Assembly: GCA_019352195.1 (NCBI GenBank)
Contig: JACAFG010000002.1
Coordinates: 167,820-231,819 of the forward strand
Direction of reading: 5' to 3'
Length of the DNA stretch: 64,000 nucleotides
Source: Candidatus Saccharimonadota bacterium
GTDB taxonomy: Bacteria; Patescibacteriota; Saccharimonadia; UBA4664
Part shown: positions 12,141 to 62,320 of the stretch, in pieces
Layout: the number at the start of each line of letters is the position of its first letter
Position numbering within the stretch: position 1 is the stretch's first letter
Notes under the pieces: model-generated
Seen by the model: the letters and a program-made list of their open reading frames with translations, nothing else
What the model was told of the DNA's origin: nothing
Databases searched by the model: none
Position numbers and translations under genes: made by a program

Positions 12141-12151
12141 TGGGCGCTGTT

Positions 12152-14046: not shown

Positions 14047-14151
14047 GATAGGGTCCTTATCTCGATAATCGGTCGGGTGTCGAAATACGCATCGATTAAC
14101 TCATAGACATACTGTGCCGTCAAACCATTCTTATCTGGACGTGGTAGGATT

Positions 14152-15071: not shown

Positions 15072-15086
15072 GGCTCCTCATTTTGA
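15053..15086. terminator. bidirectional intrinsic terminator
   Basis: AATGAGGAGCCC-tag-GGGCTCCTCATT flanked by A- and T-runs, between convergent genes. Confidence 0.8.
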
Positions 15087-15101
15087 TTGGAGGCTTATGA
15101 G

Positions 15102-15353: not shown

Positions 15354-15552
15354 AGGTCTGGCTCCTCACTTAATTAACACATTAAGCCTAGCCCAGAAAT
15401 GGGGTCTGCGAATATGACGTTGATGCCAAAAATAGTTCATTTTATCGGCTTTTTTTGAGCATTGGCATTTTGATGAGTACGATAAAAGGGAACCGCCCCG
15501 CCAACGAGATGCCGGCGGGGCGGCGGGTGGCTGGCTGCATCCCCAAAATCGT

Positions 15553-20158: not shown

Positions 20159-20160
20159 CA

Positions 20161-24566: not shown

Positions 24567-25265
24567 ATGAGCTTGTTTACCTCACTTAGTCTCTTTTTTC
24601 CGGTTTACAACGAAGTTGCCGTGCTTGAAGATACCATTCGCCGGGCCAACAGGTCTTTGCTGGGGCTAAAAGTGGCTGATTTCGAGCTCATTATCATCGA
24701 CGACGGCTCAACTGATGGTTCAGGGGCGTTGGCTGATAAATTGGCTGCTGAGTTACCGGTGGTCCGAGTGGTGCATCACGCGGCAAATGGGGGATACGGG
24801 GCAGCTTTGCAAACCGGCTTTGGCGCTGCCACCAAAGAATGGGTGATGTATACCGATAGCGACGGGCAATTTGATGTGGCAGATTTGGCCAACTTTGAAC
24901 GCTATGTCGGTAGTTATGACGTTATGCTAGGGTATCGTTTGCAACGACAAGATCATGTCGGCCGCATCGTAAACGCCAAGGCCTGGAGCGCCTTGGTTCA
25001 CCTGTTAATTGGCGTAAAAGTACGCGATTTGGATTGTGCCTTTAAGGTTATTCGTCGTTCGGCCCTCGTTCGTGTATTGCCGCTCGAGGCATCGGGCGCG
25101 GTAATTTCGGCAGAATTATTGCTGAAGCTGAAGCGAGCTGGTTATAAGTTTGTGCAGGTTGGCGTTCATCATTATCCGCGCGTGGCGGGTGAGCCGAGCG
25201 GTGCTAAACCAAGCGTAATCCTCAAGGCGCTCAAAGAGCTGGCGGCCTTACGTCGCAGCGTTTAG
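24567..25265 (+). CDS. GT2 polyprenol-phosphate glycosyltransferase (Ppm1/DPM1/GtrB-like)
   Basis: FPVYNEVAVLEDTI ... IIIDDGSTDGS ... TDSDGQ. Its 3' end overlaps the 3' end of the convergent GT39-like gene. Confidence 0.7.
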   Translation: MSLFTSLSLFFPVYNEVAVLEDTIRRANRSLLGLKVADFELIIIDDGSTDGSGALADKLAAELPVVRVVHHAANGGYGAALQTGFGAATKEWVMYTDSDGQFDVADLANFERYVGSYDVMLGYRLQRQDHVGRIVNAKAWSALVHLLIGVKVRDLDCAFKVIRRSALVRVLPLEASGAVISAELLLKLKRAGYKFVQVGVHHYPRVAGEPSGAKPSVILKALKELAALRRSV

Positions 25266-26674: not shown

Positions 26675-26686
26675 AACACTGCTTGG

Positions 26687-27310
26687 CTAATAGATGTAGC
26701 GCCATGATCCGGCGTTAGTCCAGCGATGGTCGATCTGGTAGAGGCCATTGTAGTTCATCTCGGCCACCAGAACTTGATTGCCGGAGACTTGCTCAACCAA
26801 CGCAACGTGGCCGTAGTAGCCGGCGGTGGTAGTAGCAATGGCGCCGACAGCAGGCGCGCTGCCGGTACTCCAATGAGCGGCTACGGCATGATAATACCAG
26901 CTATTAGCGTTGCCCCAGTTTGAGGGCACTTGGCGCCGACTGGCGACATACCAGGTACATTGGCCGCGTGAGTAGCTGTTGGCGTAGGTGCCGTACGCTG
27001 CGAGAGTACCCGGCGGCAATAAGCCGCCATTGGGGCCCGGTCCAAGTTCGGCTACGCCCACGGACGCTTCGGTAGCAGCTGAGGCAGTTTGGGTGGTGGC
27101 GAGACCGCCTGGCACAAGCAGATGGTGGCTGCCCATCACCCAATTGCTGACTGCTGCCAGCAAACACCAGGCGATGATGCCCGTCCAGACACGGCGCGAG
27201 TATTTTCGAAGCCGCAAGCTGCGTCGCCATACTCCGCGACTTACCTGGCGCATCGAAGGGCCGGGTTCGCGGGGGACGAGATAAGGGGATTGATAGGTAA
27301 GTGTCTTCAT
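26687..27310 (-). CDS. secreted CHAP-domain peptidoglycan amidase/peptidase
   Basis: TM/signal region, then CHAP with Cys (GQCTWYV) and His (GHVALV). Confidence 0.65.
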   Translation of the reverse strand: MKTLTYQSPYLVPREPGPSMRQVSRGVWRRSLRLRKYSRRVWTGIIAWCLLAAVSNWVMGSHHLLVPGGLATTQTASAATEASVGVAELGPGPNGGLLPPGTLAAYGTYANSYSRGQCTWYVASRRQVPSNWGNANSWYYHAVAAHWSTGSAPAVGAIATTTAGYYGHVALVEQVSGNQVLVAEMNYNGLYQIDHRWTNAGSWRYIY

Positions 27311-32804: not shown

Positions 32805-32895
32805 CTTGCCCACACTTGTTATGCTTAATATTAACACGCAAGAGTCTATCTGGACAGATGGTGTCAAATGCTGCGAGCTCCTATAAGATAGGAAC

Positions 32896-36840: not shown

Positions 36841-38220
36841 ATGAGTCAGACCTGGGTACACGAAGCCAGAATCAAAGTCTTAAACGACGCTCGTGTTAAA
36901 TCCGAGGGGCGTTGTGTAATTTATTGGATGCAAAAAGATCAGCGCAGCCGCGACAACTGGGCATTGGTTCGGGCGATTGAACTGGCCAATCAATATGAGG
37001 TACCTTTGGTGGTCGCTTTTTTCGTGTGGGACGGCCTGAAAAATGCCTACCTGCGGCATTTTGAGTTTATGTTACGGGGTTTAAGTGAAGTGGCAGCCGA
37101 TTTGGACCGGCAGCAAATCGGCTTTGTAATGCGCCGTGACGAGCCAGTACATGGGATTGTTGCCTTGAGGGAGGAATTACAGGCGCTGGCGGTTGTTACC
37201 GATCAAGGATATCTACGTCTTGCTAAACGCCGGAGAGAGCGGGCCGCACTAGCCTTAAGCGTCCCGCTTGAAGCGATTGATGCGGCTATGATTGTGCCGC
37301 CGGCGGTACTGAGTGATAAGCAGCTCTATGCTGCCTATATTGCCCGTCCGAAGCTACGTGATTATTCTGACGAATTTCTGACCAATTACCCAAGTCTGAG
37401 AGTTAAGGTTTCGTGGACGCTTCCTCTTGAGGGCCTTGAGGTAGCGCGACCCGACAGTATCCTGCATCAGTTGCGGCTTGATACCAGTGTTGGTCCGGTA
37501 AGCCAAGTGTCGGGGATGACTGGTGCTGAAGCAGTGCTCAAAGCATTCATTAAGGACGGGGTCGCTAGATATAAAGATGACAGTAATGATCCAACGGCTT
37601 CGTCGACATCGCAGCTGTCAGCCTACCTGCACTACGGGCAACTTTCAGCACAGCGAATTGCATGGGAGCTTAGGCATGCTCCGAGTTATGCGGCTAACCA
37701 GGATAGCACCGATAAGTATCTAGACGAACTTATAACCTGGCGGGAGTTGTCGACTAATTTTGTGTGTTACAACAATAACTATGATTCCTATGAAGGTTTG
37801 CCCGAATGGGCCCGCAAATCGCTCGAAATACATGCCAATGATGAGCGTGAGTTTGTCTACGATCTCAGTCAATTTGAAGCTGGCCTAACTCATGATGAGT
37901 TGTGGAATGCTGCGCAAATGGAAATGACGAAGTCAGGTCGCATGCACGGCTACATGCGCATGTATTGGGCTAAGAAGATTTTAGAATGGACATCATCACC
38001 CCAGATAGCTATTGATATTGCGGTCTATCTAAATGACAAGTATGAGCTTGATGGACGAGAGCCTGGAGGTTACGCTGGGATCCTTTGGGCAATTGGCGGT
38101 CTTCACGACCGGCCTTGGTTTGAACGCGAGATTTACGGACAAGTACGATATATGAATTACAACGGGGCAAAGAAGAAATTTAACGTGCCAGCGTACATTG
38201 CGCATGTAAACGACCTCTAA
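36841..38220 (+). CDS. class II CPD deoxyribodipyrimidine photolyase
   Basis: Class II N-terminal signature (VIYWMQKDQRSRDNWAL), an FAD-binding C-terminus, and conserved W residues. Confidence 0.85.
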   Translation: MSQTWVHEARIKVLNDARVKSEGRCVIYWMQKDQRSRDNWALVRAIELANQYEVPLVVAFFVWDGLKNAYLRHFEFMLRGLSEVAADLDRQQIGFVMRRDEPVHGIVALREELQALAVVTDQGYLRLAKRRRERAALALSVPLEAIDAAMIVPPAVLSDKQLYAAYIARPKLRDYSDEFLTNYPSLRVKVSWTLPLEGLEVARPDSILHQLRLDTSVGPVSQVSGMTGAEAVLKAFIKDGVARYKDDSNDPTASSTSQLSAYLHYGQLSAQRIAWELRHAPSYAANQDSTDKYLDELITWRELSTNFVCYNNNYDSYEGLPEWARKSLEIHANDEREFVYDLSQFEAGLTHDELWNAAQMEMTKSGRMHGYMRMYWAKKILEWTSSPQIAIDIAVYLNDKYELDGREPGGYAGILWAIGGLHDRPWFEREIYGQVRYMNYNGAKKKFNVPAYIAHVNDL

Positions 38221-39579: not shown

Positions 39580-40041
39580 GTGCAGGTAAGGAATACGAGT
39601 TCTCAGTTCGAGAAATCGCTACTCAACAAAATCGCTCGGGTCGCAAACAGGCTCGAAGCTGAGGTGGAAAACGAGTTAAAGGTCAGCTTCGCGCTGACCT
39701 TTTCTCAATTCAGGGTGCTCGACGCCTTGCTCGGCCGCGATGAATTGAGCCAGCGAGAACTAGCCGAAGTCATTGGAGTGACTCCGGCTGTAGTAACGCG
39801 TCAAGCCGAAGTACTGGCGGGACGGGGACTGCTAGAACAGCGGGAAAACCCGCGCAGCCGTCGCGAAAAGCTCATTGTTGCCACGCGCAAAGGGGAACAA
39901 GCGGCCGTTGATGCCGGTAAGGCAATTATGAATGCGCAAAAACGGCTGTTTGAGCCGCTAGATGTACAAGAAGAGTTGGCGATAGAGCGTGGCCTATCAA
40001 AAATGCCGCCGGTGCCAACGAATTGGCACCGGCGCTTCTAG
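39580..40041 (+). CDS. MarR-family winged-helix transcriptional regulator
   Basis: LTFSQFRVLDALLGRDELSQRELAEVIGVTPAVVTRQAEVLAGRGLL (wHTH). Its stop overlaps the RT stop (tail-to-tail). Confidence 0.7.
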   Translation: MQVRNTSSQFEKSLLNKIARVANRLEAEVENELKVSFALTFSQFRVLDALLGRDELSQRELAEVIGVTPAVVTRQAEVLAGRGLLEQRENPRSRREKLIVATRKGEQAAVDAGKAIMNAQKRLFEPLDVQEELAIERGLSKMPPVPTNWHRRF

Positions 40042-40976
40042 GATCGAATGAGCCAGTCATTGCGATGCAACTGGTAGTCATGGAACAACTCCAGGGTGTG
40101 ACACTCGGCTCGGTTACGGCCCTGATGACTTCGTGGCGTGGCCGTCCAGTATACTCCCATGTAGCCAGCAACTTTGGCCGGTTTGATCATGCCGTACCTG
40201 GCTAAGTGCAAAATGCCATTGACCTTACCGAGATACTTACGCGGGACATAGGTACGGCCGGTGAGGTCGAGCCCAATGCCGTTGATCTGGACCGGTCCCT
40301 TCGCGAGGTCGTAAACTTTGGCCTTGCGATAGCTGATGTCAAACCCTGCCGCTGCGATGACGTCTCTGATGGCACGTCGTTTGCGCTCACCAATGGGTTC
40401 GTTACTTGAGAAGGTGAGGTCGTCAATGTAGCGGCTGTATGTCAGCCCCCAGCGCTTGAGTCGGGGGGCTAAGCGTTGATCGATGAGCTCGCCGGCATAG
40501 ATGTTAAACAGATCCGGCGAGGCGGGCGCTCCGGTGAGTAGGCCGCCCGTTGTGCCCAAACAATAGCGCTTGAGAAAATCATGTGTGCTCGACAGCTCGG
40601 ACGGGTCGGCAACAAGATAGCCGTCACGTTGCGCTGCCAGCGTACACAGGATGAACGCCAGTTCGCCACCCTTTACATACAAATACGCGCTGTGAAGGTC
40701 CAGCAGGTACAAGTAGCGCTTGCCGCGATGACGCTCGACATTGCGTCGTGGCGACGAGCCAGGTAAAACCGCGGTGGCGTAGGGTGAGCGGCCATGGACT
40801 TTAGTTTGCAGGAGCCGTAGATCAACGATCATGCGGCTATGAAGCTTGCGCATGGGGTCGTTGGGCGCGTGAATGGTGCGCCACTTGGTAACCCCGCTTA
40901 CCTTATTTTCATCGCGTAATCGATGAACGCGAAAGCTTGGCTCATCTCCAAGGAGGTCTGATAGGTTGTCAAACAA
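40038..40976 (-). CDS. retron-type reverse transcriptase (312 aa)
   Basis: RT motifs 1-2 (KWRTIHAPNDPMRKLHSRMI), A (YLYLLDLHSAY), B' (LLTGAPASPDLFNIY), C (YSRYIDDLTFSS, retron-like RYxDDLTFS), and D with a VTG-like INGIGL. TTG start with GAGGAG RBS. It lacks group II intron maturase/X domains and the DGR (I/V)GxxxSQ motif. Confidence 0.7.
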   Translation of the reverse strand: MFDNLSDLLGDEPSFRVHRLRDENKVSGVTKWRTIHAPNDPMRKLHSRMIVDLRLLQTKVHGRSPYATAVLPGSSPRRNVERHRGKRYLYLLDLHSAYLYVKGGELAFILCTLAAQRDGYLVADPSELSSTHDFLKRYCLGTTGGLLTGAPASPDLFNIYAGELIDQRLAPRLKRWGLTYSRYIDDLTFSSNEPIGERKRRAIRDVIAAAGFDISYRKAKVYDLAKGPVQINGIGLDLTGRTYVPRKYLGKVNGILHLARYGMIKPAKVAGYMGVYWTATPRSHQGRNRAECHTLELFHDYQLHRNDWLIRS

Positions 40977-49091: not shown

Positions 49092-50546
49092 ATGGTGAGT
49101 TGGCGGTTGTCACGTGAGTTACATGAGAGCGCTGGTTTTACTTCGGTCAGCCGACTTCTTAGTGGCGCCGGAATGCTTGTTGCGGTAGCACTTGCCGCTC
49201 AGTTACTTGGCTCGAGCTGGTATATGGGGCGCATGCTACCGGATACGATGATCGGCGACCAAAACGTGGGCAATCTAACGCTCCCTCAAGCTCGCGTGAA
49301 GCTTGAGTCTATGGCAGCAAGCTACAATGTGGCTTTAAGCATCGGTGGTCAGCAATATAGCTTTACGCCCGCCCAACTAGGCATCACTTATGATGTGCAA
49401 ACCAGCATTGACGGAGCCTATAATCGACAGCGAACGACGTGGTTTTTTGCTCCGGGCAAGCGCTCGAGCACGCTCACGTATCATATTAATACCCCTCAGC
49501 TGACGGCCGCGATTGGGGCAGTGGCTGACAAAATTGGGACGCAACCGGTAAACGCCAACCTGAAAGTTTTGAATGGCCAAATTGTTACGGTGGCTGATAA
49601 AGATGGCTTCACGGTTGATCGCGTTGGTTTGGCCCGGTTGATTGAGCAAAATTTGGGCACTGGTACGCCGGCTCATTTGGCCACGGTACCACATCGCGAG
49701 CCGGCTGCTATTTTGGCGTCGTCGCTGGCACCAAGTATTGCAGCCACCAAGCAGCTCATGAACACGCAAATCACGCTCACCTATGGTACGCAAGTGTGGA
49801 CGCCGACGAGCGCGGCAATTGGTTCGTGGCTAACTTTTCAGCCGAACGATTCAAGCGCCACTGCCCCCGTTCTCGAGCCGGTGGTGGATCAGACCAAGCT
49901 GGCTGCATACGTGTCGGGCTTGGCTAAACAAGTTGATATAGCACCGGTGACGCAGCTGGAAACAGTTACCAATGGCGCCGTAAATATAAGCCGTATTGGG
50001 GTAAACGGCACAGCTATTAATCAAGCGGCCGTGGTAGCGGCGGTTTCGTCAGCAGTAATGAGCCAGCAAGCCTTGAATTACACGATTACCGACGGTCCCG
50101 TGGCATATAAAACCACGGTAACAAACTTCACGGTGCTGGATCTACCAAGTTACGTTGAGATCAATCTTAAGGTGCAGCATATGTGGGTGTGGCAAAACGG
50201 CGCCATTATTTATGACTCCCCTGTGAAGAGTGGCGCAACGGGCGCCGGTTATCCGACGGTAGAAGGTATGTTCCACATTTACTACAAATCTACGGATACG
50301 TGGTTGAACGGCGAGTCGATGGGTCCGCGCTACAACTACAATGACCATGTGAATTATTGGATGCCGTTTTATTCTGGGTACGGAATGCACGACGCAAGTT
50401 GGCGCAACGGTAACTTTGGCGAAACTTCCGGGCCCTTAGGATACTGGCGCGATGGCTCTCACGGCTGTGTGAATTTGCCGGATGCGACGGCGGAGTGGCT
50501 CTACAACTGGAGCGTGGTTGGTACGCCCGTTTGGGTTCATGAATAG
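49092..50546 (+). CDS. L,D-transpeptidase (YkuD domain) with N-terminal TM anchor and VanW-like region
   Basis: C-terminal catalytic motif SHGCVNLP. Confidence 0.7.
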   Translation: MVSWRLSRELHESAGFTSVSRLLSGAGMLVAVALAAQLLGSSWYMGRMLPDTMIGDQNVGNLTLPQARVKLESMAASYNVALSIGGQQYSFTPAQLGITYDVQTSIDGAYNRQRTTWFFAPGKRSSTLTYHINTPQLTAAIGAVADKIGTQPVNANLKVLNGQIVTVADKDGFTVDRVGLARLIEQNLGTGTPAHLATVPHREPAAILASSLAPSIAATKQLMNTQITLTYGTQVWTPTSAAIGSWLTFQPNDSSATAPVLEPVVDQTKLAAYVSGLAKQVDIAPVTQLETVTNGAVNISRIGVNGTAINQAAVVAAVSSAVMSQQALNYTITDGPVAYKTTVTNFTVLDLPSYVEINLKVQHMWVWQNGAIIYDSPVKSGATGAGYPTVEGMFHIYYKSTDTWLNGESMGPRYNYNDHVNYWMPFYSGYGMHDASWRNGNFGETSGPLGYWRDGSHGCVNLPDATAEWLYNWSVVGTPVWVHE

Positions 50547-50604
50547 CGTTTTAATGGCGATATTGCGGTAGCAGCTCTCAAGCATTAGTGTTATCATTTC
50601 AGAT

Positions 50605-51015
50605 ATGAACCCGCAAACTACCCCCGTCCCCCAACCATCTGGTGAACGTCCCGCGACGGGTACGCCAGAGCTGACTGTACCCAATCCGGAACACCTTGTA
50701 ACTGAGGCTGTAACACCGGAACCCGGTAGCCCTAACGCCGCTCCGGCCGGTGCACCACCCATAACAGCCAGTGATGTGGCGGCAGCGATTGCGCAAATGC
50801 CGTCGGCTACGCCGCCAGCGGCTACTTCCGGTGCCGTTCCTGCTACTGCCTCAGATGTTGATGTAATTGAACCCGAATGGGTTGATCAGGCCGAGAGTGT
50901 TATCGCCAAAACTGCTGGTGATCCACATGCCGAAGAAGAGGCCGTGGAGGCATTACAGGTGGATTATTTGGCCAAACGTTATGGTCACAATATCGCCAAA
51001 AGTGGTGATGAGTAG
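50605..51015 (+). CDS. hypothetical Pro/Ala-rich protein
   Basis: 136 aa with no RBS and a low-complexity N-terminal half. Uncertain. Confidence 0.35.
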   Translation: MNPQTTPVPQPSGERPATGTPELTVPNPEHLVTEAVTPEPGSPNAAPAGAPPITASDVAAAIAQMPSATPPAATSGAVPATASDVDVIEPEWVDQAESVIAKTAGDPHAEEEAVEALQVDYLAKRYGHNIAKSGDE

Positions 51016-51091
51016 CTGTCAGTAAAGTTTTTGTAACTAGAGGCCAAGTGAGCAGAGCCAGAGTATCAGCTAAGCGTTTGGAGGGCCAACG

Positions 51092-54000
51092 ATGAGCGGA
51101 ATCGCCGTCGTAGTATTGGTTTTCTTTGTCTTGGCAGCGGTGCTCGGCGGGGTGGCTTATATGGTGTATCGGCGCAAGCTGCAGCGGGCAAAATCGATTG
51201 AACGCGGTCTTAAAATGGTGCCGCTTCTCATTCATTTGCCTGCCAGCTCGAGCGACACGGCAGCTGGCGGACGTGACGTGCGCGAAGTTATGCGCGAAAA
51301 GATTGCCCAGGCCGAAGTGCTCTACAACCTTATTGCCGGGACCGCTACTAATGGCTTTAAGTCGACTTTTTATGGTCAACGACATATTGCGCTCGAAATC
51401 ATTGCCAGCGATGGTATGGTGCATTTTTATGCGGCGGTGCCAGTTAATTTGGTAAGCGTCATTGAAAAAGCCATCCTCACGGCTTATCCGGGGGCCAAAC
51501 TTGAAGAAACCGAAGACCACAACATCTTTAATGAGCAAGGTCGCTTGTCGGCCACTATGGGCGGAGAACTGGTACTTAAAGCCGATGCGGCCTATCCGAT
51601 TGCGACATATACCCATTTGGAGCGTGATCCGCTAGAGGCACTCCTTGTAACCCTGAGCGGCTTGAGCAAAACCGACGGCGCAGCGGTGCAAATTATGGTA
51701 CGTCCTGCTCCCCCAGCATGGGTAAAGTCAGCGGTGAAACTCACCACAAAATTGCGCCGCGGACGAAATCAAGGCTTGAAATTTGGTGTTGCTGACCTCG
51801 CAAAGGCAGCGGTAAAGGCGCCAACGTCGTCGGTACCCGCTGACTTGGCTAAAGGCGCCACTAATCCCAATTTGAGCCAACTAGAATTGTCGGCCATTGA
51901 GCAGGTTGAGGATAAAACCAAGCATCCTGGGTTCGAAGTCCTTATTCGGGTGCTCGTTTCGGCCGAAAATGTATCGCGCAGTCAGCAGGTGCTTCAGGAT
52001 TTGGCGACCAGCTTTTCGCTTTTTGAACGCCCTGGGCTGAACGGCTTTAAGTTTGTGCCGGCACTTGATGTTCAGGGGCTGGTGACAGCCTTTATTTTTC
52101 GCTTCTTCCCGCCGGAAATGCACTCCAGTGTGCTTAATTCGGCAGAGCTTGCCACGTTGTTTCATTTGCCAGACTCACAGTTTACGCCCACCAACAATGT
52201 TGCACGTCAGCTGAGCAAAGAGGTAGATGGCCCCACTTCACTGTCATCAACCGGCCTTCTACTCGGTTACAACGAGTTTCGCGGGACGAAGAAAGAGATC
52301 CGTCTGAGCGAGCAGGATCGTCGTCGTCACACGTATATTCTGGGCCAGACCGGGACCGGTAAATCTACCATGCTTGAGAACATGATGGTTCAGGATATGC
52401 TGTCGGGCAACGGCTTTGCATTTATTGATCCGCACGGCGATTCGGCCGAAAAGCTTCTGAGTTTGGTGCCCAAAAACCGGGCCGAGGATGTTATCTACTT
52501 CAACCCGGCTGATATGGAATATCCTCTGGGGCTAAACTTATTTGAGTTTGATGACCCGATGCAAAAGGATTTCTTAATTCAAGAGAGCCTTAATATGCTC
52601 TATAAACTCTACGATCCCAACGGTACGGGTGTGATTGGTCCGCGGTTTGAGCAGTGGTACCGTAACGCGGCGCTTACACTGATGGCCGATCCCAATGGCG
52701 CTACCTTCATTGAAATTCCCAAGGTTTTCACCGATACCGAATATCTGAAGCAAAAGTTTAAATATCTGAAAGACCCTACGGTTATAGATTTTTGGACCAA
52801 GGAAATGGGCCAGACGAGCGATTATCATAAGTCGGAAATGCTCGGCTATTTTGTCAGTAAATTTGGCGCTTTTCAGCAAAATGAAATGATGCGAAATATC
52901 ATTGGCCAGACGAAGTCGGCCTTTAATATGCGCGATATCATGGATAACAAAAAAATCTTAATTGTGAACTTGAGTAAAGGCCAAGTTGGCGAGATGAACG
53001 CCAAACTGCTCGGTATGATGTTTGTCATTAAGTTCCAATCGGCCGCCATGAGCCGAGCTAACATGCCGGAAGCTGACCGCAACGACTTTTGTTTGTATGT
53101 TGATGAATTTCAAAACTTCTCCACCGATAGTTTTGCCTCAATTTTGAGTGAGGCGCGCAAGTATCGCCTCAACCTAATTGTAGGTAACCAGTTTATTGGT
53201 CAGCTGAGTAACGAAATTAGAGATGCGGTTTTTGGTAACATCGGGACGATTGTTGCTCACCGGATGGGTCCGGATGACGCTGAGTTTATGGTTAAGCAGC
53301 TTACGCCGGTGTTCGACGCGTCGGACCTTATGAATATCCCGAACTATCATTCGGCGGTACGCCTCCTCATAGGTGGCCTGCCGAGCCAACCGTTTACCAT
53401 GCTCGACTCTCCATGGATTGCGCCCGGCAATCCGGCGATGGGAGTGGCTATAAAGCAGCTGAGTGCGGCTAAATTTGGCGTCGCCAAACCAGTGGTGGAT
53501 GCGGATATTACGGCGCGGCTCAGCAGCCGTCCGGTGGTGCCGGCGCCGACCGTGCAACTGACCCCTTCCAAACCAACTGAAATTCCGGATGATAAGTCGC
53601 CCGTGATGCTCCCACCCCCGACATCAGTGGCCACAGCGCCAGCACCGGTTGTGGCACCACCAAAGGTAGCTGAAGCGATTACCCCCATGCCCGCATCATC
53701 AGGCCCCGTTTCGGCCGTCGTGACGCCGCAGGTCGAAGCAGTAGCGTCAGTAGTGCCGCTCGCAACAGCTCCAGCCGAAGCTACGGCGCAAGCCACGCCA
53801 ACGACGGTTGCTCCGACGTCGGCTCCTGTGGCTGAAGTCGCTACGCCGGCCCCTGTTCTGGCTCCTATGGTGGAATCGCCGTCCATTATTGCTGACTCGG
53901 CAGATGACGACGCGCCCGATCCGGTTCGGACCGCGTTGGGCCAGCCGCTTCCGCCGCCGTCAGCGCCCGCAGTGCTCCCGATTGCTGAGCCGGTATCTAC

Positions 54001-56950
54001 TCCAGCTCCAATGCCCCAGCCAGTTGCCGCGCCAGTTGTTATACCCGATGCAGCGCCTATTGCTAGTTCGATGCCACCGATTGGAGCGCCACCGATTGCA
54101 CTACCAGGCGAGAGCGCAGATCAGGTGACGGCGCCTGTGACAAATAAGGATACGCTCTCGATTCGCGATATTACGGGCGGTGAGCGGACGCCCGTGGTGG
54201 CGCCGAGCGCACTGGACGACGTCGAACTTATTCCTCCAGGTGCTGAGCCGCCAGTGGTTCCGATGGTACCAGTTTACGATCCTGCCACCGATCCTAACGC
54301 GGGTGTCGACTTGTTGGCTGCACCTCCGCCACCACTCGCCAACGCTGACGCGTCAAGCGCGCCTACGCCTGTTGCGGCTAAACCCGCCGCCGTTTATGAT
54401 CCGGCGACCGATCCTAACGCTGCCGTACCACTTCTTGCTGCCGATGTTAACATGGAGCCTGTCTTTGAATTGCCTCCTACGGCTGCACCTGCGTTGCCAG
54501 CAGAACCGGTAGTATTAGCCACCCCGATTGCTGTCCCGATGCCTATTGAACCGACTATACTCTCGACTCCTGAGCCAAACTGGCAGGCCGGTCCCGAGCC
54601 GTTAGCAAACCCCGCCGTGGAGAGCGTGGCAGCACAACCGGTGGCCACTGCTACGGCTGACGATTTTGTCTCCGAAGGCGGTGATAACCTGCCCATTCAC
54701 TTTATTGATCCCAGTCTCGAAGCAGTTCTTGAGCGTCCGTATGAAACTACGGCTACGCCGGTGAAGCCGATTTCAACGGCTGTTTCGGCACCTGAATTAG
54801 CGGTGCCCCCGGAGCCTGCTTCAGTAAGCCCGGCACCGGTCATTGTCTCCGCCTTACCGCCGCTTGGTGCGCCGTCGGTGGCGCTGCCGTCGAGCGATGC
54901 CAATTTAGCCTCGAACGTAACGACGGCTCCGGCTACAAGTTTTGTTAACCCGGTTGCCAGCGAGGCACTGCCTCCCAAGTCGGTCATGCCCGCACCAGTT
55001 GAACCCGCGGCACCGGTGCCGGCACTAATTCAAACACCGCCGCCCATTGGAGCGCCGCCAGTAAGTCTCGACCAGACACCGACGATAGCCTCAGTTACCA
55101 ACGTAACTGCTGATACACCGATAGTTATTGCCGAGCCGCCCGCATCAGAAGTGATTGCTCCCGTTATGGAACAGCCCGTGGAACAGACGGCGCTCGTAAA
55201 AGCGGAACAAGCCTCGTCATTGCCTCAAGCTGAGACGTCCCGTCAGACACTAGCATCGCCAGTTGAGCCTTTACCAACAGTTGAGCCTGTAGAGCTTAAG
55301 CCAGCAGAGATTAAGACGCCGGCCGTGCCGGTGGTTGCTGATTCGAAAACAATCATTCAGTCGCCGGTCGACACGAAGCCAGTAGCTGGTGACATAACAA
55401 ATGTATATGCGCCGGCTCCCTTGCCTGTAACCGAGCCAGCTATGGTTCCAGGGGTCGCCAAACCGGTTGCCCACGAAGAACCGGTTTCGGAGCCCGTACC
55501 AGAGCCCGCGCCAACACCCCGTCCTGAGCCCAGTCCCGAAATAAAAGCAGCCATGGCGGCGGTGTCGTCCGAAATCATCGGTGCTCCCACGCCCTCGGCA
55601 GCGGTGCCTGCGCCGGCCACGTCGACGTTAGCGAAGCCTGCGCCTGATACTCATCACGCTGAAGCTGAAACGGTGCCTCAGCCCACGCCTGCGGCACAAC
55701 CGACTGACGCGCTTGTCTCGTCAGTTGATGAAGGCAGGCCGAAGATTGAAGAGCAGCCGCGCGAGCATCCTGCTCCTATGACGGCCGAATCAAAGCCGGA
55801 GTCAAAGTCCGACGCCCATGCGCAGCCAGCCGCCAATAAAACGGTGGAGACTAAACCCACTGAGCCTGCCAAGCAGCCGACAGAAGCTAAACCGGTTGCG
55901 GCAGTTCATGTGGACGAGCCTCAAATCATCACTCACTCGACAGATAAAACATCTGATACGCCCAAAATTGAAACGCATATGCCGGTTAAAGCGGCCGAAA
56001 TTGTGGCCAAAACTGAAGACACTATCGATGAGCTGTTAAGTACTTCCCTCATTCATACCGGCTCAAGTCGGCATCGTTTGGCCGAACCAGAACCCGAAGC
56101 GGCAGCAGCCGCTGAAACCACCGATGGCAAGACTCCAGATAGCGGCCGGCACTGGGTGGGAAGTTCGCAGCCAGCAGATATTGGCGATCTGGACGAAGGC
56201 GAAACAGCTGATGAAGAGTCAGCCCATGAGCCGACCCTTTACAGCAGTGCTCACCAAAAAGTAATCCAGCCGCCTCAGTCGGTTGTCTCCCTGAAAGAAG
56301 AGCTTGCCAAAGAGTTGAAGGCCGAAGCGACTGAAATGGGGGCGCAGGCACCGACGCTAGCTGCTGCTCCATCGCCTGTCCCAGTCCCAACAACTGCACC
56401 GACTCCGATGCCCGAGCCAGTTCCAACGCCTAAGCCCGCGGCGGCGGTAATTCGCGACTTGCGACCAGACTACGTCGCTAATGCCAACCCGGCTCCGCGC
56501 CCGTTGATACCAACTCCGCCCCCCGCTCCGGTAGTGGCATCGGCCGACGACTTTGATTTGCCCGAAGCTACTTCATTGGCGGCCGATGACGTCGCGGCAG
56601 CGCGAATGGCCCAACGCGCGGCCGGTGAAGCCCGGGCAGCTGCCATTGCCGCCGTACCGCCGCCGCGCTCATCATCGCTTGGTCCGGCATCGACCCTGGC
56701 ACAACCGGTTCACCCGGCTAAGCAAAATCGTCATCACGCTGAACAGCGTCGGTCGACGCCCAAGCCAGCACCGGCTCCAGTCGCACCTAAGCGCGTAGTA
56801 GAACCCGAGCCCATGACTGGTAAGCTTATCTTGCCCAACGCGGCCGCCCAGGCTGCCAACAGCGTCCCTAAGCAGGTGGTGCGTCCCGAGAAGCTCGCTA
56901 AGGGTGAAGTATTTGTTGATGCTTCGGGCAACGTTGTGGTTGGCGAGTGA
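51092..56950 (+). CDS. giant membrane-anchored P-loop ATPase (FtsK/HerA/TraG-TrwB-like, DUF87-type) with ~1150-aa Pro/Ala/Val-rich C-terminal extension
   Basis: N-terminal TM; Walker A (RRHTYILGQTGTGKSTML) followed by IDPHGD; Walker B (FCLYVDEFQNF). The C-terminal 60% is low-complexity PAPV-rich with repeated VYDPATDPNA(G/A)V and PIGAPP motifs. Confidence 0.65.
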   Translation: MSGIAVVVLVFFVLAAVLGGVAYMVYRRKLQRAKSIERGLKMVPLLIHLPASSSDTAAGGRDVREVMREKIAQAEVLYNLIAGTATNGFKSTFYGQRHIALEIIASDGMVHFYAAVPVNLVSVIEKAILTAYPGAKLEETEDHNIFNEQGRLSATMGGELVLKADAAYPIATYTHLERDPLEALLVTLSGLSKTDGAAVQIMVRPAPPAWVKSAVKLTTKLRRGRNQGLKFGVADLAKAAVKAPTSSVPADLAKGATNPNLSQLELSAIEQVEDKTKHPGFEVLIRVLVSAENVSRSQQVLQDLATSFSLFERPGLNGFKFVPALDVQGLVTAFIFRFFPPEMHSSVLNSAELATLFHLPDSQFTPTNNVARQLSKEVDGPTSLSSTGLLLGYNEFRGTKKEIRLSEQDRRRHTYILGQTGTGKSTMLENMMVQDMLSGNGFAFIDPHGDSAEKLLSLVPKNRAEDVIYFNPADMEYPLGLNLFEFDDPMQKDFLIQESLNMLYKLYDPNGTGVIGPRFEQWYRNAALTLMADPNGATFIEIPKVFTDTEYLKQKFKYLKDPTVIDFWTKEMGQTSDYHKSEMLGYFVSKFGAFQQNEMMRNIIGQTKSAFNMRDIMDNKKILIVNLSKGQVGEMNAKLLGMMFVIKFQSAAMSRANMPEADRNDFCLYVDEFQNFSTDSFASILSEARKYRLNLIVGNQFIGQLSNEIRDAVFGNIGTIVAHRMGPDDAEFMVKQLTPVFDASDLMNIPNYHSAVRLLIGGLPSQPFTMLDSPWIAPGNPAMGVAIKQLSAAKFGVAKPVVDADITARLSSRPVVPAPTVQLTPSKPTEIPDDKSPVMLPPPTSVATAPAPVVAPPKVAEAITPMPASSGPVSAVVTPQVEAVASVVPLATAPAEATAQATPTTVAPTSAPVAEVATPAPVLAPMVESPSIIADSADDDAPDPVRTALGQPLPPPSAPAVLPIAEPVSTPAPMPQPVAAPVVIPDAAPIASSMPPIGAPPIALPGESADQVTAPVTNKDTLSIRDITGGERTPVVAPSALDDVELIPPGAEPPVVPMVPVYDPATDPNAGVDLLAAPPPPLANADASSAPTPVAAKPAAVYDPATDPNAAVPLLAADVNMEPVFELPPTAAPALPAEPVVLATPIAVPMPIEPTILSTPEPNWQAGPEPLANPAVESVAAQPVATATADDFVSEGGDNLPIHFIDPSLEAVLERPYETTATPVKPISTAVSAPELAVPPEPASVSPAPVIVSALPPLGAPSVALPSSDANLASNVTTAPATSFVNPVASEALPPKSVMPAPVEPAAPVPALIQTPPPIGAPPVSLDQTPTIASVTNVTADTPIVIAEPPASEVIAPVMEQPVEQTALVKAEQASSLPQAETSRQTLASPVEPLPTVEPVELKPAEIKTPAVPVVADSKTIIQSPVDTKPVAGDITNVYAPAPLPVTEPAMVPGVAKPVAHEEPVSEPVPEPAPTPRPEPSPEIKAAMAAVSSEIIGAPTPSAAVPAPATSTLAKPAPDTHHAEAETVPQPTPAAQPTDALVSSVDEGRPKIEEQPREHPAPMTAESKPESKSDAHAQPAANKTVETKPTEPAKQPTEAKPVAAVHVDEPQIITHSTDKTSDTPKIETHMPVKAAEIVAKTEDTIDELLSTSLIHTGSSRHRLAEPEPEAAAAAETTDGKTPDSGRHWVGSSQPADIGDLDEGETADEESAHEPTLYSSAHQKVIQPPQSVVSLKEELAKELKAEATEMGAQAPTLAAAPSPVPVPTTAPTPMPEPVPTPKPAAAVIRDLRPDYVANANPAPRPLIPTPPPAPVVASADDFDLPEATSLAADDVAAARMAQRAAGEARAAAIAAVPPPRSSSLGPASTLAQPVHPAKQNRHHAEQRRSTPKPAPAPVAPKRVVEPEPMTGKLILPNAAAQAANSVPKQVVRPEKLAKGEVFVDASGNVVVGE
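54271..54450 (+). repeat. intragenic tandem duplication (~60 nt units ~120 nt apart) encoding VYDPATDPNAxV...LLAA
   Basis: gtttacgatcctgccaccgatcctaacgc versus gtttatgatccggcgaccgatcctaacgc. Confidence 0.6.
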
Positions 56951-56980
56951 GACTCCTCCCCTAACGGTCAGCCCAATACA

Positions 56981-57016
56981 AAAAAATGTCCTCGCAGCGG
57001 CGAGGACATTTTTTTA
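56981..57016. terminator. bidirectional intrinsic terminator
   Basis: AAAAAA-TGTCCTCGC-agcg-GCGAGGACA-TTTTTTT. Confidence 0.85.
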
Positions 57017-57033
57017 GACGGGCGAGTGACCGG

Positions 57034-57603
57034 CTATTTGTGGCGCGGGTGTAGCGAACGAACGAGACCTTCGAGCACAACACCGATAATACCGCCGGCG
57101 ACGAGCGAGACAACAAGCTCTGATCCGCGCATAGCGTAGCCGTAGGTACGTGCGAAGTAGTAAAACGTCCCAGCCACAATCAGCGCGGTTACAACGGCTC
57201 CTAGGGTCACTGAAGGCCGCATAACACTCGACTCGAGAGCTTCGCTGGTTTTTTCAACGAGGGGTGCATGAATGACTTTACTAAAACTTCGGCTGGCCGG
57301 CGACAGTTTGTGCTGCATGCTAGCCATTGTCTCGGTATAGCTTAGATGCGGGTTGAGCCGGCCCATGAAGGTGGGTTTGGGCGCCTGATTTTCGGCTGCC
57401 GCGACGGGTTCTTCTTTTGACTGTTCTTGCTGATCGATGACTTTACGCGCAGTTTCAGCGCGCTCACCTTGATCGTCGCGGTGGTTTTCGGCCGCGGCTT
57501 CGGCAGAAGCTTCTTGCTCGGCGAGCTGAGCTTCGGCGAGCTTGTCGAGCTCACTCTGACGCTCGGCAGATTCGTGATTTATGGGTCCCTGTTCAGCTGA
57601 CAT
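57034..57603 (-). CDS. hypothetical protein with acidic/coiled N-terminus and two C-terminal TM helices
   Basis: RBS GGAGGAGC upstream. Follows the LPXTG gene on the same strand (3-nt gap). Confidence 0.5.
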   Translation of the reverse strand: MSAEQGPINHESAERQSELDKLAEAQLAEQEASAEAAAENHRDDQGERAETARKVIDQQEQSKEEPVAAAENQAPKPTFMGRLNPHLSYTETMASMQHKLSPASRSFSKVIHAPLVEKTSEALESSVMRPSVTLGAVVTALIVAGTFYYFARTYGYAMRGSELVVSLVAGGIIGVVLEGLVRSLHPRHK

Positions 57604-57606
57604 TAT

Positions 57607-59148
57607 TTAAGCTCCTCCTTGGTAATCGTGGCGTATCAGCTTAATTTCGGCGGCTAGCTGGCGGTTGCGGAAGTAGAAGAAGATGGCCAGCGCGCTAAAG
57701 ACTAAGACGATGGTGGTGGCAGTTCCGGCACCGGTGGCAGGCAACTGAGCTGCGGCGGTTTCTATTTGCTTGGGCAGTGGTGGTGTAACGTGGACCTGAA
57801 CGGCATTGCCGTAGACGTTATCCATGCGCAAATCAAAGCTAAACGGGTCTGATAGCCCAGCTGGCGTTGAAGGTACCGGGTCTTTGACGGTGACGGTGAA
57901 AGTTTTGGTGATGGTTTGGCCGGGAGCAATGGTGACAGGGTTCCAGGTGAGGATGCCGTCTTTGTCCACCAGGCCGCCGTCAGAGTCGCTGACATTGGCA
58001 TATTCGAGAATATCGGCTAGGTGCTCGACGACGGTGTAGCTGTCCGATACGCCGCCAATATTGGTGGTGGTGAGACTATACATTATTCGGTCGCCGGGGT
58101 TGGCGCTTTTGGTGGTAGCGTCAACATTTTGCGTGAGATTGAGGGCTGACTTGTGCTTCGTGAACGCGGCCGGGGTTGGGGTGACAACAACCTTATAGGT
58201 ACAAGGTGCGATCACGGGCGTGGTGGTTCCGAGCGAACCCGTAACCGTGAGAGCGGCGGTAAAGGTGCCGGCTGTTTTGTAAGTATGGGTCGCGGTCCGG
58301 GAGGCCCCACTGGCCGGTGTCGACGAATCGCCAAAGTCGAAGGTGTACTTGGTAATCGTTTGGCCACTTGAGCTGCCTTCGCCGGTGTAATTAACGGTAA
58401 GCGGGGCGGTACCCGAGATAACGTTGCCAGTGAGCTGGACGCACGCCAAGGTGGGCTTGGGACTTGGGGTTGGAGTGGGAGTAACTTTGGGGGTGGCGGT
58501 TGGTTTAGGGGTGGGGGTTGGCGCTTTGGTTGGCGTTGGGGTGGGCTTGGGCGTGGGGGTGGGAGTAGGCGGGGGAGTAGGGAACTTCTTAAACACCACG
58601 TTGCCGCAGCGGAACATGATAGCGAAATATTGGCCGGAGGCAGTAGTGCCCTGGAGGACGTCGTAATTTGAACCACTTTGGACGTTGCCACCGGTATCAA
58701 ACTGGTACAAATACCGGGCATAGTACTCATGCGAGCCAACGGTAAAGGCTCGGTCGCTTGCCGCGTGCTGGATACGCCCAACTGAATTGAGTGACTTATC
58801 GCGAGTATTAATGGTTACTTTGGTAGAAGCTGCGATATCGGCCCGTGAGATGCCGAAGTATTTGTAGAGGGCTTGGAGTTCGGCGGAGCTGTCGTATTTG
58901 TTGAGCAAGTCGGCCTTGGAGACGTAGCCGCCATAAATAATGTCGTTGGGTGAGGCTGCGTTTACGTTGGCAGGGGGAGCGGCAATCGTTGAAAACTGGA
59001 GCAACACAATAAGAACAGCACCAATGGCCGAAAAGACACGCGTAACCTTTTCTTTGGCTAATCGTCGGGCATAAAACGATAGTTGAGCCGAAGCGTGAGG
59101 GGAAAACGACAGTGCGGACACGATATCTTTAAACATTAGCGTTATCAT
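57607..59148 (-). CDS. LPXTG-anchored cell-surface protein with PKD-like domain and Pro/Thr-rich stalk
   Basis: C-terminal sortase signal (QLPATGAG, hydrophobic helix, RNRQ); PT-rich linker; PKD-like YTFDFGDSSTP...THTY. Start set to MITLMFKD. Confidence 0.65.
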   Translation of the reverse strand: MITLMFKDIVSALSFSPHASAQLSFYARRLAKEKVTRVFSAIGAVLIVLLQFSTIAAPPANVNAASPNDIIYGGYVSKADLLNKYDSSAELQALYKYFGISRADIAASTKVTINTRDKSLNSVGRIQHAASDRAFTVGSHEYYARYLYQFDTGGNVQSGSNYDVLQGTTASGQYFAIMFRCGNVVFKKFPTPPPTPTPTPKPTPTPTKAPTPTPKPTATPKVTPTPTPSPKPTLACVQLTGNVISGTAPLTVNYTGEGSSSGQTITKYTFDFGDSSTPASGASRTATHTYKTAGTFTAALTVTGSLGTTTPVIAPCTYKVVVTPTPAAFTKHKSALNLTQNVDATTKSANPGDRIMYSLTTTNIGGVSDSYTVVEHLADILEYANVSDSDGGLVDKDGILTWNPVTIAPGQTITKTFTVTVKDPVPSTPAGLSDPFSFDLRMDNVYGNAVQVHVTPPLPKQIETAAAQLPATGAGTATTIVLVFSALAIFFYFRNRQLAAEIKLIRHDYQGGA

Positions 59149-59242
59149 ACAACCAATTGATGCCTGTTGCCAACCGGTTCCAACAATTGAAGGCGCGCAA
59201 GACGACGCCCCAACCGGCAGGCGTCGGTTGGGGCGGGAAGGT

Positions 59243-59995
59243 CTAGTGCTTGGTTTCGAGTTCGAGTTGGGTGACGGCGGTCCGAATGGCGGCGGCAATA
59301 ATGACAACAGCCTGGGTGCTGGTACCACCGAAGTCGAAGGTGCGCCAAGGTTTGCGGTCGCGTTGATTCGGGACTGCCAGTTGCCATTTGTGGAGGTTGT
59401 CGGGCAATGGATAGAATACATAGGCAGAATACGGCAGCCCGAGCCTGATGTAAGACCCGTCGTCGGCTACTACGGTGGCAGGCCACCAAGCTTCAACTTG
59501 TTCACCCACCTGGGCGACGAACTCCTTGTAGCGGCGACGATATAAAGCGGCGTACCAACTGTCGAAAACAACGATACCGCCGATGGCGATGAGCACGCCG
59601 ACGGCGACCGCAAAATCGCGATGGGCGAGCCCCCTAACCGTATCGAAGACGGCTAGTCCCAGAAAGAACGCACCAACGAGTGACATGTAGGCGGCGGTCA
59701 GGTAGACAGCGCCGCCAATGATCTGGAGCGAGCCGTCATAGGCATCGGTAGGATTGCCACCAAATAGCAACATGGCCATCGCAAGGCCGAGTATTGTCAG
59801 GGCCGTTACGGCGGCGCAAATGAGCAGGAGCCACCCGAAATGTGCCCAATACCATTGCATCGGCGCGGTACGAATGGCCGGTGATAGAAACAGCCAGGCA
59901 ATGCCCGCAATGATGAAGGCGACGGTGAATATCGTGACGACGCGTGCCGTAAGGCGGACGCAGCGGGCGGGGAGGGAAAAGATATTGGTTGTCAT
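59243..59995 (-). CDS. hypothetical polytopic membrane protein
   Basis: RBS GGAGAG before the ATG at 59995. About 5 TM helices. Confidence 0.5.
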   Translation of the reverse strand: MTTNIFSLPARCVRLTARVVTIFTVAFIIAGIAWLFLSPAIRTAPMQWYWAHFGWLLLICAAVTALTILGLAMAMLLFGGNPTDAYDGSLQIIGGAVYLTAAYMSLVGAFFLGLAVFDTVRGLAHRDFAVAVGVLIAIGGIVVFDSWYAALYRRRYKEFVAQVGEQVEAWWPATVVADDGSYIRLGLPYSAYVFYPLPDNLHKWQLAVPNQRDRKPWRTFDFGGTSTQAVVIIAAAIRTAVTQLELETKH

Positions 59996-60214
59996 GGTTC
60001 TTCTCTCCGAACGTGAACGGGACGAGTTGACCATACGATACCACATTTGTCATGAGTTATCAATAATTTAGATGGTGATGAATTTGGTCGCCAAGCCACA
60101 GCTAGCGCTAATGTTAAATGAGAGAGTTGCCTGTCATCTGGCAAAAGCGTTATAATGGTTGCAATGGTGAGCTTACGAGCTCGTTTTTGTTGGACTAAAT
60201 GGTGGTAATACTGA

Positions 60215-62320
<2,106 letters not shown>

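Follow-up and report, generated by a model that had tools for sequence, protein, structure and literature searches.

A coupling-protein-like DUF8128 ATPase of a Saccharimonadia chromosome, its clade-expanded tail and its conserved terminal peptide

The stretch of DNA analysed here (the window) comprises 64,000 nucleotides (nt) of Candidatus Saccharimonadota bacterium (assembly GCA_019352195.1, contig JACAFG010000002.1, positions 167,820 to 231,819). It is ordinary chromosomal backbone, with tRNA synthetases, gyrB, glycosyltransferases and a PilB-type ATPase, and it carries a plus-strand gene for a giant ATPase of 1952 amino acids (aa), which opens with ATG and has GGAGG 8-12 nt upstream. A small open reading frame (ORF) precedes this gene, and three minus-strand ORFs converge on it from downstream (Table 1). 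The same 1952-aa product is annotated in a public record (GCA_017884045.1, contig JABBYD010000041.1), where it carries PF26449 (DUF8128); the local Pfam copy used for our domain scans lacks this model, and family membership comes from a precomputed match (E<=1e-5 class) to the exact product and to nearly all of its homologues. We consider it very likely that the gene encodes a genuine, full-length and vertically inherited coupling-protein-like DUF8128 ATPase, the tail of which has expanded within its clade and ends in a conserved peptide.

Table 1. Features of the ATPase locus, with positions in the window
Feature	Position	Strand	Basis or remark
Small ORF (putative partner), 136 aa	50605..51015	+	Pro/Ala-rich N-terminal half and conserved ~55-aa C-terminal helical domain (DVDVIEPEWVDQAESVI..GDPHAEEEAVEALQVDYLAKRYG)
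Whole ATPase gene, DUF8128 / coupling-protein-like	51092..56950	+	Identical product on 3 contigs; PF26449 in public annotation
N-terminal transmembrane (TM) anchor, aa 1-27, then RRKLQRAK	51092..51172	+	Sole segment with Kyte-Doolittle hydropathy >1.6
DUF8128 domain, aa 36-380 (~345 aa), predicted fold like the VirB4 N-terminal domain	51197..52231	+	AlphaFold2 model and Foldseek
P-loop ATPase domain, aa 381-810, including a predicted all-helical insert (aa ~490-620)	52232..53521	+	Pfam, PDB sequence matches, Foldseek
Walker A, HTYILGQTGTGKST, GQTGTGKS, aa 418-425	52343-52366	+	
Walker B, CLYVDEFQ (within the LYVDEFQNF region), aa 667-674	53090-53113	+	
Pro/Ala/Val-rich variable tail, aa 811-1928 (~1130 aa)	53522..56875	+	Composition, no TM segments, no tandem repeats
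Conserved tail islands	54059-54112, 54146-54190, 54695-54730, 56546-56611	+	
VYDPATDPNA pair in tail	54272-54304 and 54392-54424	+	
Conserved terminal peptide, aa 1929-1952, VVRPEKLAKGEVFVDASGNVVVGE	56876..56947	+	Core phi-x-phi-D-x-x-G-x-phi; alignment and motif counts
Convergent two-TM protein, 189 aa	57034..57603	-	Acidic N-terminal half, SPxxRSFSKVIHAPxVE segment, two C-terminal TM segments (aa 126-151, 159-184)
LPXTG surface protein, 509 aa from MFKDIV	57607..59136	-	35-aa N-terminal peptide, signal-anchor, ~130-aa domain without assignment, PT linker, PKD, DUF11/DUF7927, LPATG (57730-57744), TM, RNRQL
Four-TM ORF, 267 aa (250 aa in public record)	59243..60046	-	Between surface-protein gene and gyrB

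An initial annotation of this locus had described a TM-anchored P-loop ATPase of the TrwB/VirD4/HerA/FtsK superfamily, and the Pfam, PDB sequence and Foldseek evidence bears this out. The motifs that it quoted (Walker A, IDPHGD and LYVDEFQNF) are all present in the ORF, IDPHGD at aa 445-450, and residues G418-K424 and D671/E672 are invariant among 68 ATPase sequences. A hydropathy scan of the 1952 residues found no second TM-like segment beyond the anchor, and the basic stretch that follows the anchor predicts, by the positive-inside rule, that the remainder is cytoplasmic. Among Pfam models, TrwB_AAD_bind (PF10412) matched the ATPase domain with 30.8 bits against a cutoff of 20.5, over only ~65 of its 387 positions, and DUF87/HerA (PF01935) matched marginally around the P-loop (26.5 bits, cutoff 23.2). 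The best PDB sequence matches were DotL/IcmO (3e-7) and TrwB (5e-7), with HerA marginal, whether a single sequence or a 68-sequence profile was used; no VirB4 chain was among them, even with the profile. It is not a housekeeping FtsK. That candidate was rejected on a hidden Markov model check, in which FtsK_SpoIIIE (PF01580) reached 18.3 bits against a cutoff of 24 at the P-loop only and PF13491, PF17854 and PF09397 gave no match, and on the presence of a separate essential FtsK in the relative Southlakia epibionticum. A HerA helicase was rejected as well: the PF01935 match is marginal, HerA structures align worse than TrwB, and the gene has no NurA-like neighbour.

The AlphaFold2 model of aa 1-833 (mean pLDDT 84.7) begins with a long helix (aa 2-40); the N-domain after it (aa ~40-360) is of alpha/beta type, and the domain that follows is RecA-like and contains the all-helical insert. 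Searched against the PDB with Foldseek, it matched full-length TrwK/VirB4 best (E 1e-15, alignments of 850-930 columns), then TrwB (TMt 0.58-0.64 over ~440-460 columns, almost all of TrwB-deltaN70), and after these HerA, Cag-beta and DotL. The N-domain modelled alone (pLDDT 84.6, pTM 0.83) has no match in the local Pfam copy even at E<=10. All 14 of its PDB matches at E<=1e-3 were TrwK/VirB4 (E 8.5e-7 to 3.6e-4, TMq 0.42-0.51), the next being unrelated oxidases at E~0.02, and among viral models (BFVD) it matched gp156 and gp155 of phage G, the latter annotated as 'VirB-like'. From N- to C-terminus, the protein thus consists of one TM anchor, a domain with a predicted VirB4-like N-terminal fold, a TrwB/VirD4-type motor with a predicted helical insert, a hypervariable tail and a terminal peptide.

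The long Pro/Ala-rich tail, also part of the initial annotation, is real and not a product of mis-assembly. From aa ~811 onwards the composition is 18% Pro, 18% Ala, 11% Val and 8% Thr with 1.2% aromatic residues and a net acidic charge; frame 1 is free of stop codons across 3.4 kb, against 22-72 stops in each of the other five frames, and codon usage resembles that of the N-terminal part. The internal tandem duplications that had been proposed shrink to a small local duplication: VYDPATDPNA occurs twice, at aa 1061 and 1101 (40 aa apart; a 29-nt DNA repeat, 90% identical, at a distance of 120 nt), but there is no extensive array, and Tandem Repeats Finder reported nothing anywhere in the tail, which also holds three PP[IL]GAP[PS] motifs. 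Tail length ranges from 135 to 1276 aa among relatives and tracks the clade. In the window's own clade (74-77% identity), 14 complete genes give products of 1536-2070 aa with tails of 766-1276 aa, so that 1952 aa is typical; proteins measure ~1010-1580 aa in the clade at 61-69% identity (excepting one split gene, described below) and 947-1072 aa in that at 57-60%, and the shortest complete ones have 929 aa (loci L045, 65% identity, and L076, 59%). A comparison with relatives from the window's clade gives 13-32% identity for the tail and 70-85% for the N-terminal part, with five conserved islands: IASSMPPIGAPPIALPGE (aa 990-1007), KDTLSIRDITGGERT (1019-1033), IHFIDPSLEAVL (1202-1213), DDFDLPEATSLAADDVAAARMA (1819-1840) and the C-terminus. 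The proposed disorder of the tail finds part of its support here, in Pro content and spacing, few aromatics, low complexity and hypervariability, which together suggest a disordered chain; the charge-hydropathy plot gives it none. Computed as a random coil, a tail of 1150 aa would have a radius of gyration of ~13 nm and a contour length of ~414 nm, in a cell 200-300 nm across (PMC12857230).

Whatever the length of the tail, its end is conserved. Almost all full-length homologues close with the consensus L-x-P-G-E-[IV]-[YF]-[IV]-D-x-x-G-N-[VL]-x-x-G, which reads LAKGEVFVDASGNVVVGE* in the window. A relaxed core, phi-x-phi-[DN]-x-x-[GN]-x-phi, is found exactly once in 55 of 71 complete proteins and always 12-54 residues before the end; where the tail has a recognisable anchor, the core lies within the last 62 residues in 49 of 57 cases, and it does not occur once in the 23,828 tail residues upstream. 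When the residues of the tails were shuffled, the number of tails ending in the motif averaged 0.08. Across the ORFs of 81 loci, the strict motif appeared in no ORF other than the ATPase, with the sole exception of a split copy of the gene itself. To our eye the motif resembles a single YD-repeat beta-hairpin. The split copy belongs to a complete genome (L049, CP064960.1), in which a 737-aa N-terminal ORF (9992-12205) is followed by a 674-aa ORF (13522-15546) ending in GEVFVDEKGNV, and the convergent cassette was not detected at that locus; behind the split may lie a pseudogene, a frameshift error from long reads or a natural arrangement.

The ATPase appears to have an obligate small companion. 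We compared the flanks (+/-10 kb) of 80 of the 348 loci that encode a relative among GTDB species representatives, all 80 from Saccharimonadia-type metagenome-assembled genomes (MAGs), and the small ORF lies directly upstream of the ATPase gene in 79 of them. Its N-terminal half is predicted to be disordered. Its C-terminal domain is kept wherever the ORF is found (consensus D[VL]D[VL]IEKEWVxKAKxIV..T..DP...), and the 136-aa product matches no Pfam family. Two distant tailless orthologues from the Candidate Phyla Radiation (CPR) are preceded by Pro-rich ORFs of 124-137 aa (L093, 5914-6288; L095, 1672-2085), the 124-aa one abutting the ATPase start; these resemble the Saccharimonadia ORF in position, size and make-up and have no detectable homology to it, and they may be a fast-evolving equivalent.

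Relatives of the ATPase are numerous and, within Saccharimonadia, fixed in place. The first 833 aa retrieved more than 7649 homologues (best 75% identity), all named ones from Saccharimonadia-type MAGs, and an exhaustive search of representatives clustered at 50% identity returned 21,565 at E<=1e-3 and 5,464 at E<=1e-30, those at 35-50% identity being mostly ~800-860 aa long and hence tailless. With its single conserved chromosomal position and 57-77% identity among relatives, the gene is, on sequence evidence, a single-copy core gene of at least 348 Saccharimonadia species. More distant homologues (21-27% identity over >80% of the query, both domains) occur in Bacillus phages (SPO1 gp27.4, phage G gp156, 0305phi8-36 ORF201; phrog_5156, E 2e-81) and in 317 plasmids, including those of Bacillus, Streptomyces, Clostridium and haloarchaea (for example WP_003349917 of pBM69 and WP_331738717 of Embleya). 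The plasmid copies with examined context, at 24-27% identity over >80% of the query, occupy the classical position of a coupling protein. The Embleya cluster runs from PrgI through an XF1762-family gene and a second ATPase to the homologue, and on to a replication-relaxation protein and NlpC/P60; in four Bacillaceae plasmids the homologue is followed by a replication-relaxation protein and conjugal transfer proteins (TcpE-family in one, a B. subtilis plasmid), and then by a VirB4-like ATPase in the two loci that reach that far. A match of these Bacillus plasmids to the pLS20 type was rejected, the VirD4 of pLS20 being a different, canonical type IV coupling protein (T4CP). The Bacillaceae plasmid homologues carry acidic tails of ~100-150 aa ending in S[IV]DDLLV*. 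Because these relatives end in another conserved peptide, a disordered tail with a docking peptide at its tip looks like a trait of the family, with the peptide itself specific to the lineage. In phage G (L008, 90859-93336), the two-domain ATPase adjoins gp155, which shares the N-domain fold, a pair of coupling-protein-like and VirB4-like genes in a lytic Bacillus phage.

Published genetics in S. epibionticum ML1 offer a functional view of the corresponding block, which lies directly before gyrB/gyrA (Table S1 of Wang et al. 2023, PMC10633639). In the transposon sequencing (Tn-seq) calls reported there, SEML1_0142, placed by DPAM in the FtsK motor ECOD domain, is essential throughout (ES/ES/ES; 114 insertions in the input, then 11/11/9), and the small plus-strand gene before it, SEML1_0141 (139 aa), is called GD/ES/ES (9 insertions, then 0/0/0). 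The two minus-strand genes that follow are non-essential (NE): SEML1_0143 (193 aa) keeps 14/14/14 of 14 insertions, and SEML1_0144 (DUF11) goes from 58 to 33/48/48. The insertion pattern of SEML1_0142 and SEML1_0141 resembles that of genes encoding the T4SS (type IV secretion system), such as the VirB4 gene SEML1_0008 (GD/ES/ES). The essential T4SS locus of this organism (SEML1_0006-0019) is without a recognisable coupling protein, a second and more canonical coupling-type gene (SEML1_0293) is NE, SEML1_0096 is a canonical and essential FtsK with all four domains, and two sortases are encoded (PMC10633639). Saccharibacteria depend on their T4SS, and the absence of a coupling protein from its locus has been reported (PMC10633639, PMC11665869). 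A later survey by Quinonero-Coronel et al. 2025 (PMC12102498) counted 5,713 VirD4-like homologues across 2,918 Patescibacteria genomes, of which just 148 lie close to virB4; the DUF8128 ATPase is probably among those counted. The single ML1 t4cp homologue described there is non-essential, which fits SEML1_0293 and not SEML1_0142. Our literature searches found no publication that discusses DUF8128 or SEML1_0142.

On balance, we lean towards an ATPase that works with the essential Saccharibacterial T4SS encoded elsewhere in the genome, as an unlinked coupling-type ATPase with a tethered docking peptide. Since no T4SS gene lies in the 64-kb window, we infer this linkage and do not read it from the locus; we favour it because the nearest characterisable relatives are plasmid coupling proteins, because the Saccharibacterial T4SS locus has none, because the essentiality profile matches that of T4SS genes, and because the predicted N-domain fold is the one that anchors VirB4 in the machine. 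Under this scheme the ATPase would form a membrane-bound ring, probably a hexamer like TrwB, that docks on the T4SS, perhaps through its VirB4-like N-domain, and energises or gates the entry of substrates. The tail would be a flexible cytoplasmic tether, by analogy with the C-terminal linker and peptide of FtsZ, the tip of SSB and the tail of F TraD that binds TraM, and its putative hairpin-like tip may capture a conserved partner, be it an adaptor, a cargo or a T4SS subunit. In a bolder form of the proposal, the DUF8128 ATPase would be the motor and the essential receptor for substrates that the T4SS has been missing, from a lineage resembling a VirB4/VirD4 chimera, with its N-domain sitting in the VirB4 site, its tails fishing the cytoplasm and the terminal hairpin binding cargo or an adaptor, possibly the small upstream protein; this we regard as tentative and rather doubtful. 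That the tail itself might be threaded through the channel is pure speculation.

Several observations weigh against a T4SS partnership or against the coupling-protein-like description itself. There is no T4SS gene or relaxase in the window or within 10 kb of the ATPase in the 80 related loci, and the orthology of SEML1_0142 and the window ATPase rests on synteny, size and annotation. TraG-D_C (PF12696) stays below threshold (18.1 bits, cutoff 22), NCBIfam models for TraD, TrbC, CedD and VirD4-like proteins match only locally (21-36 bits against cutoffs of 250-650), and none of the curated T4CP models (TIGR03743, TIGR03754, NF045973, PF02534, PF12696) matches the ATPase over its full length, PF02534 being seen only as a precomputed match on some homologues. 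The protein has one TM helix where T4CPs usually have two. Its N-domain is like that of VirB4 at the level of fold only, in a predicted model with TMq ~0.45-0.5, and hhalign of the 68-sequence profile with the VirB4-like ATPase of a B. subtilis plasmid aligned only the Walker A region, at a probability of 2%. As to the tail, 8 of 57 lack the core motif, the charge-hydropathy plot does not class the tail as disordered, and loss of the terminal peptide shows no visible co-variation with the conserved domain of the small ORF.

Some of these points would suit a different role, in which the ring acts with the small upstream protein as an essential translocase or assembly ATPase independent of any T4SS, moving DNA or protein or serving envelope growth and division, while the tail recruits components. 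This is the main rival, though we think it unlikely. In its favour, the ATPase gene never stands beside T4SS genes in the Saccharimonadia loci examined, a distant CPR relative follows mreBCD-PBP2-greA, and an L,D-transpeptidase gene precedes the block in the window's clade. There is also the weak NCBIfam match to CedD, a DNA-import ATPase, and the exaptation of unlinked T4CPs has been raised in print (PMC12102498). These neighbours, however, are housekeeping genes in small collinear genomes and convey little functional information; the nearest homologues that can be characterised lie next to relaxases inside conjugative T4SS clusters, and the canonical FtsK of S. epibionticum means that a DNA pump for division is already present. 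A mobile origin, with the gene left over from a prophage or an integrated conjugative element and its product a coupling protein without a host function, is very improbable. The homologues in plasmids and Bacillus phages and a reverse-transcriptase ORF 10 kb upstream would be in its favour, but the gene holds one conserved chromosomal position in hundreds of species at 57-77% identity, has no relaxase, integrase or other T4SS gene nearby, is essential in its S. epibionticum counterpart and is like its flanks in composition, apart from a rise in GC driven by Pro and Ala. We give still less credence to an artefact, whether from mis-assembled repeats or from two genes fused by the loss of a stop codon. 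The tail is of low complexity and one relative is split into two ORFs, yet tandem repeats are absent, codon usage is even, and the conserved peptide stands in frame at the end across all tail lengths; we discard mis-assembly and fusion also because the identical 1952-aa product is recorded on three public contigs of different size classes and because relatives, among them the 14 complete genes of the window's clade, are long-tailed too.

The remaining alternative comes from the initial annotation, which joined the ATPase and a convergent minus-strand cassette (membrane protein, LPXTG surface protein, small two-TM protein) into one envelope-spanning apparatus for secretion or adhesion, one that would export or anchor the surface protein. 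The cassette stood up in part. All three genes exist, and the two-TM and LPXTG genes are orthologous and syntenic in ~60 species with gyrB-gyrA next to them, the two-TM orthologues keeping their place in almost every locus whose flank is long enough; the 267-aa membrane ORF, by contrast, has no homologue in the 80 related loci and no Pfam family, and looks like a lineage-specific insertion in an otherwise conserved block. The single apparatus was not supported, and we now judge it improbable. It can point to the two genes converging directly downstream in those ~60 species despite differing upstream context, and to the conserved 35-aa cytoplasmic N-terminal peptide of the surface protein as a possible recognition signal. 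Against this, the essentiality calls split between the ATPase (ES) and the two cassette genes (NE), a CPR orthologue at 43% identity stands without the cassette, the 267-aa ORF is not conserved, and gyrB is equally conserved beside the block, so that collinearity alone can explain the adjacency. Export of LPXTG proteins, moreover, normally goes through Sec, and a sortase attaches them. We see the two-TM and LPXTG genes as conserved neighbours that probably lie outside the core machine, with a putative, separable accessory function at the surface.

The five-gene block of small ORF, ATPase, two-TM, LPXTG and gyrB persists where the upstream context changes; pheST and the YkuD (L,D-transpeptidase) gene adjoin it only in the closer clades, including the window's, and the 43%-identical CPR orthologue (818 aa, tailless) lies between greA and a NUDIX gene, without gyrB. 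A mechanically listed 604-aa ORF for the surface protein is over-extended, as orthologues begin at MFKDIV. The protein has the layout of a sortase anchor, with LPATG at aa 465, a TM segment at aa 467-490 and then RNRQ; the Gram_pos_anchor model reaches 12.3 bits against a cutoff of 20, and 56 of 64 orthologues carry an LPXTG-like motif. Its N-terminal peptide, MFKxIVSxLxxSPxxxxQLxFYxxRLxxExxTR, stands ahead of the signal-anchor once per locus in 58 loci, and the segment after LPXTG (RNRQLxxEIxLLR) is conserved too. No Rfam match was found in 50000-60400, promoter-like sites occur at chance level, and a terminator scan found none in the 83-nt convergent gap.

Set beside known systems, the window ATPase resembles T4CPs (TrwB of R388, VirD4, F TraD, DotL/IcmO, Cag-beta) in being a P-loop ATPase of the FtsK/HerA superfamily that is anchored in the membrane. 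Its nucleotide-binding domain is modelled with an all-helical insert; T4CPs have a helical insert, but so does VirB4. T4CPs supply its best sequence matches among solved structures, and TrwB matches in fold at TMt ~0.62. F TraD and DotL bind partners through C-terminal tails. Unlike T4CPs, the window ATPase places ~345 aa with a predicted VirB4-like fold between anchor and motor and has one TM helix instead of two; its gene is unlinked to T4SS or relaxase genes and is an essential core gene, not one of mobile elements, and its Pro/Ala tail, of up to 1276 aa among relatives, has a different terminal peptide. The two-domain layout is also that of VirB4/TrwK/TraC, whose N-domains are the only PDB fold matches of the window N-domain; VirB4 differs in having neither an N-terminal TM anchor nor a long tail, it shows no sequence-level match to the window ATPase, and Saccharibacteria encode a separate VirB4 in their T4SS locus. 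The DUF87/DUF8128 ATPases of Bacillus phages and of conjugative plasmids from Bacillota and Actinomycetota are homologous over both domains, and the plasmid members are likewise tailed with a terminal peptide, but they are mobile, with shorter acidic tails, and sit beside replication-relaxation (relaxase-like) and T4SS genes. A folded core, a variable disordered linker and a short conserved terminal peptide for docking partners is the design of FtsZ and SSB, which are analogues in that design only: their folds and pathways are unrelated, and the window linker is several-fold longer. FtsK/SpoIIIE, finally, is a membrane-anchored member of the same ATPase superfamily, and E. coli FtsK has a Pro/Gln-rich linker; the window ATPase lacks its 4-TM and gamma domains and carries the linker after the motor, whereas that of FtsK comes before.

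Part of this is already catalogued, as a Pfam DUF entry, an NCBI name and an essential flag in a supplementary table. What appears to be new is a VirB4-like N-domain joined to a VirD4-like motor, a giant variable tether with an invariant tip, an obligate small partner ORF and the recognition that the essential coupling-type paralogue is the DUF8128 one. Four points go beyond the initial annotation: the conserved peptide at the C-terminus, an N-domain resembling that of VirB4, the conserved small ORF upstream, and homologues in the coupling-protein position on conjugative plasmids of monoderms. The published Tn-seq table lists two coupling-type genes in S. epibionticum, and the one syntenic with the window ATPase is essential together with its small ORF; an essential counterpart in the only relative open to genetic work gives a handle on the role of the secretion system. 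Should the ATPase serve the T4SS, the tail tip (17-24 residues) and the small partner would be concrete reagents, or bait, for finding cargo. That a VirB4-like N-domain is fused to a motor of VirD4 type is relevant to the divergence of these two families of T4SS ATPases, and the clade-structured growth of a tether from ~140 to ~1280 residues in cells of 200-300 nm is an unusual case of linker evolution.

Elsewhere in the window, a scan of ~39 ORFs found no VirB4, VirB6, relaxase or sortase. The reverse-transcriptase ORF mentioned above (40038-40976, minus strand, 312 aa) has an RVT_1 domain by precomputed annotation, ~10 kb upstream of the ATPase, and may belong to a group II intron or to an element of the retron type. 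A PilB/GspE-type ATPase gene (T2SSE, E 3e-104) and a neighbouring 618-aa ORF with a weak DUF6798 match (21000-22577 and 22628-24484, both minus strand) are probably part of a locus for a type IV pilus or type II secretion system, which Saccharibacteria are reported to need as an essential system. Next to a CHAP-domain protein, the window encodes a protein O-mannosyltransferase (PMT + PMT_4TMC; 25262-27310, minus strand); an enzyme of this kind could add sugars to Pro/Thr-rich linkers in surface proteins, the LPXTG neighbour among them. An ORF of 739 aa without a Pfam match (30777-32996, minus strand) is divergent from the gene of a UvrD-helicase/PD-(D/E)XK nuclease (AddA/AddB-like; 32896-35799, plus strand) and overlaps its start by ~100 nt. 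A fatty-acid desaturase (10719-12071), a DNA photolyase (36841-38220) and a pair of trehalase and ROK kinase (18797-20988), all on the plus strand in a lineage known for minimal metabolism, are consistent with an environmental Saccharimonadia clade of larger genomes.

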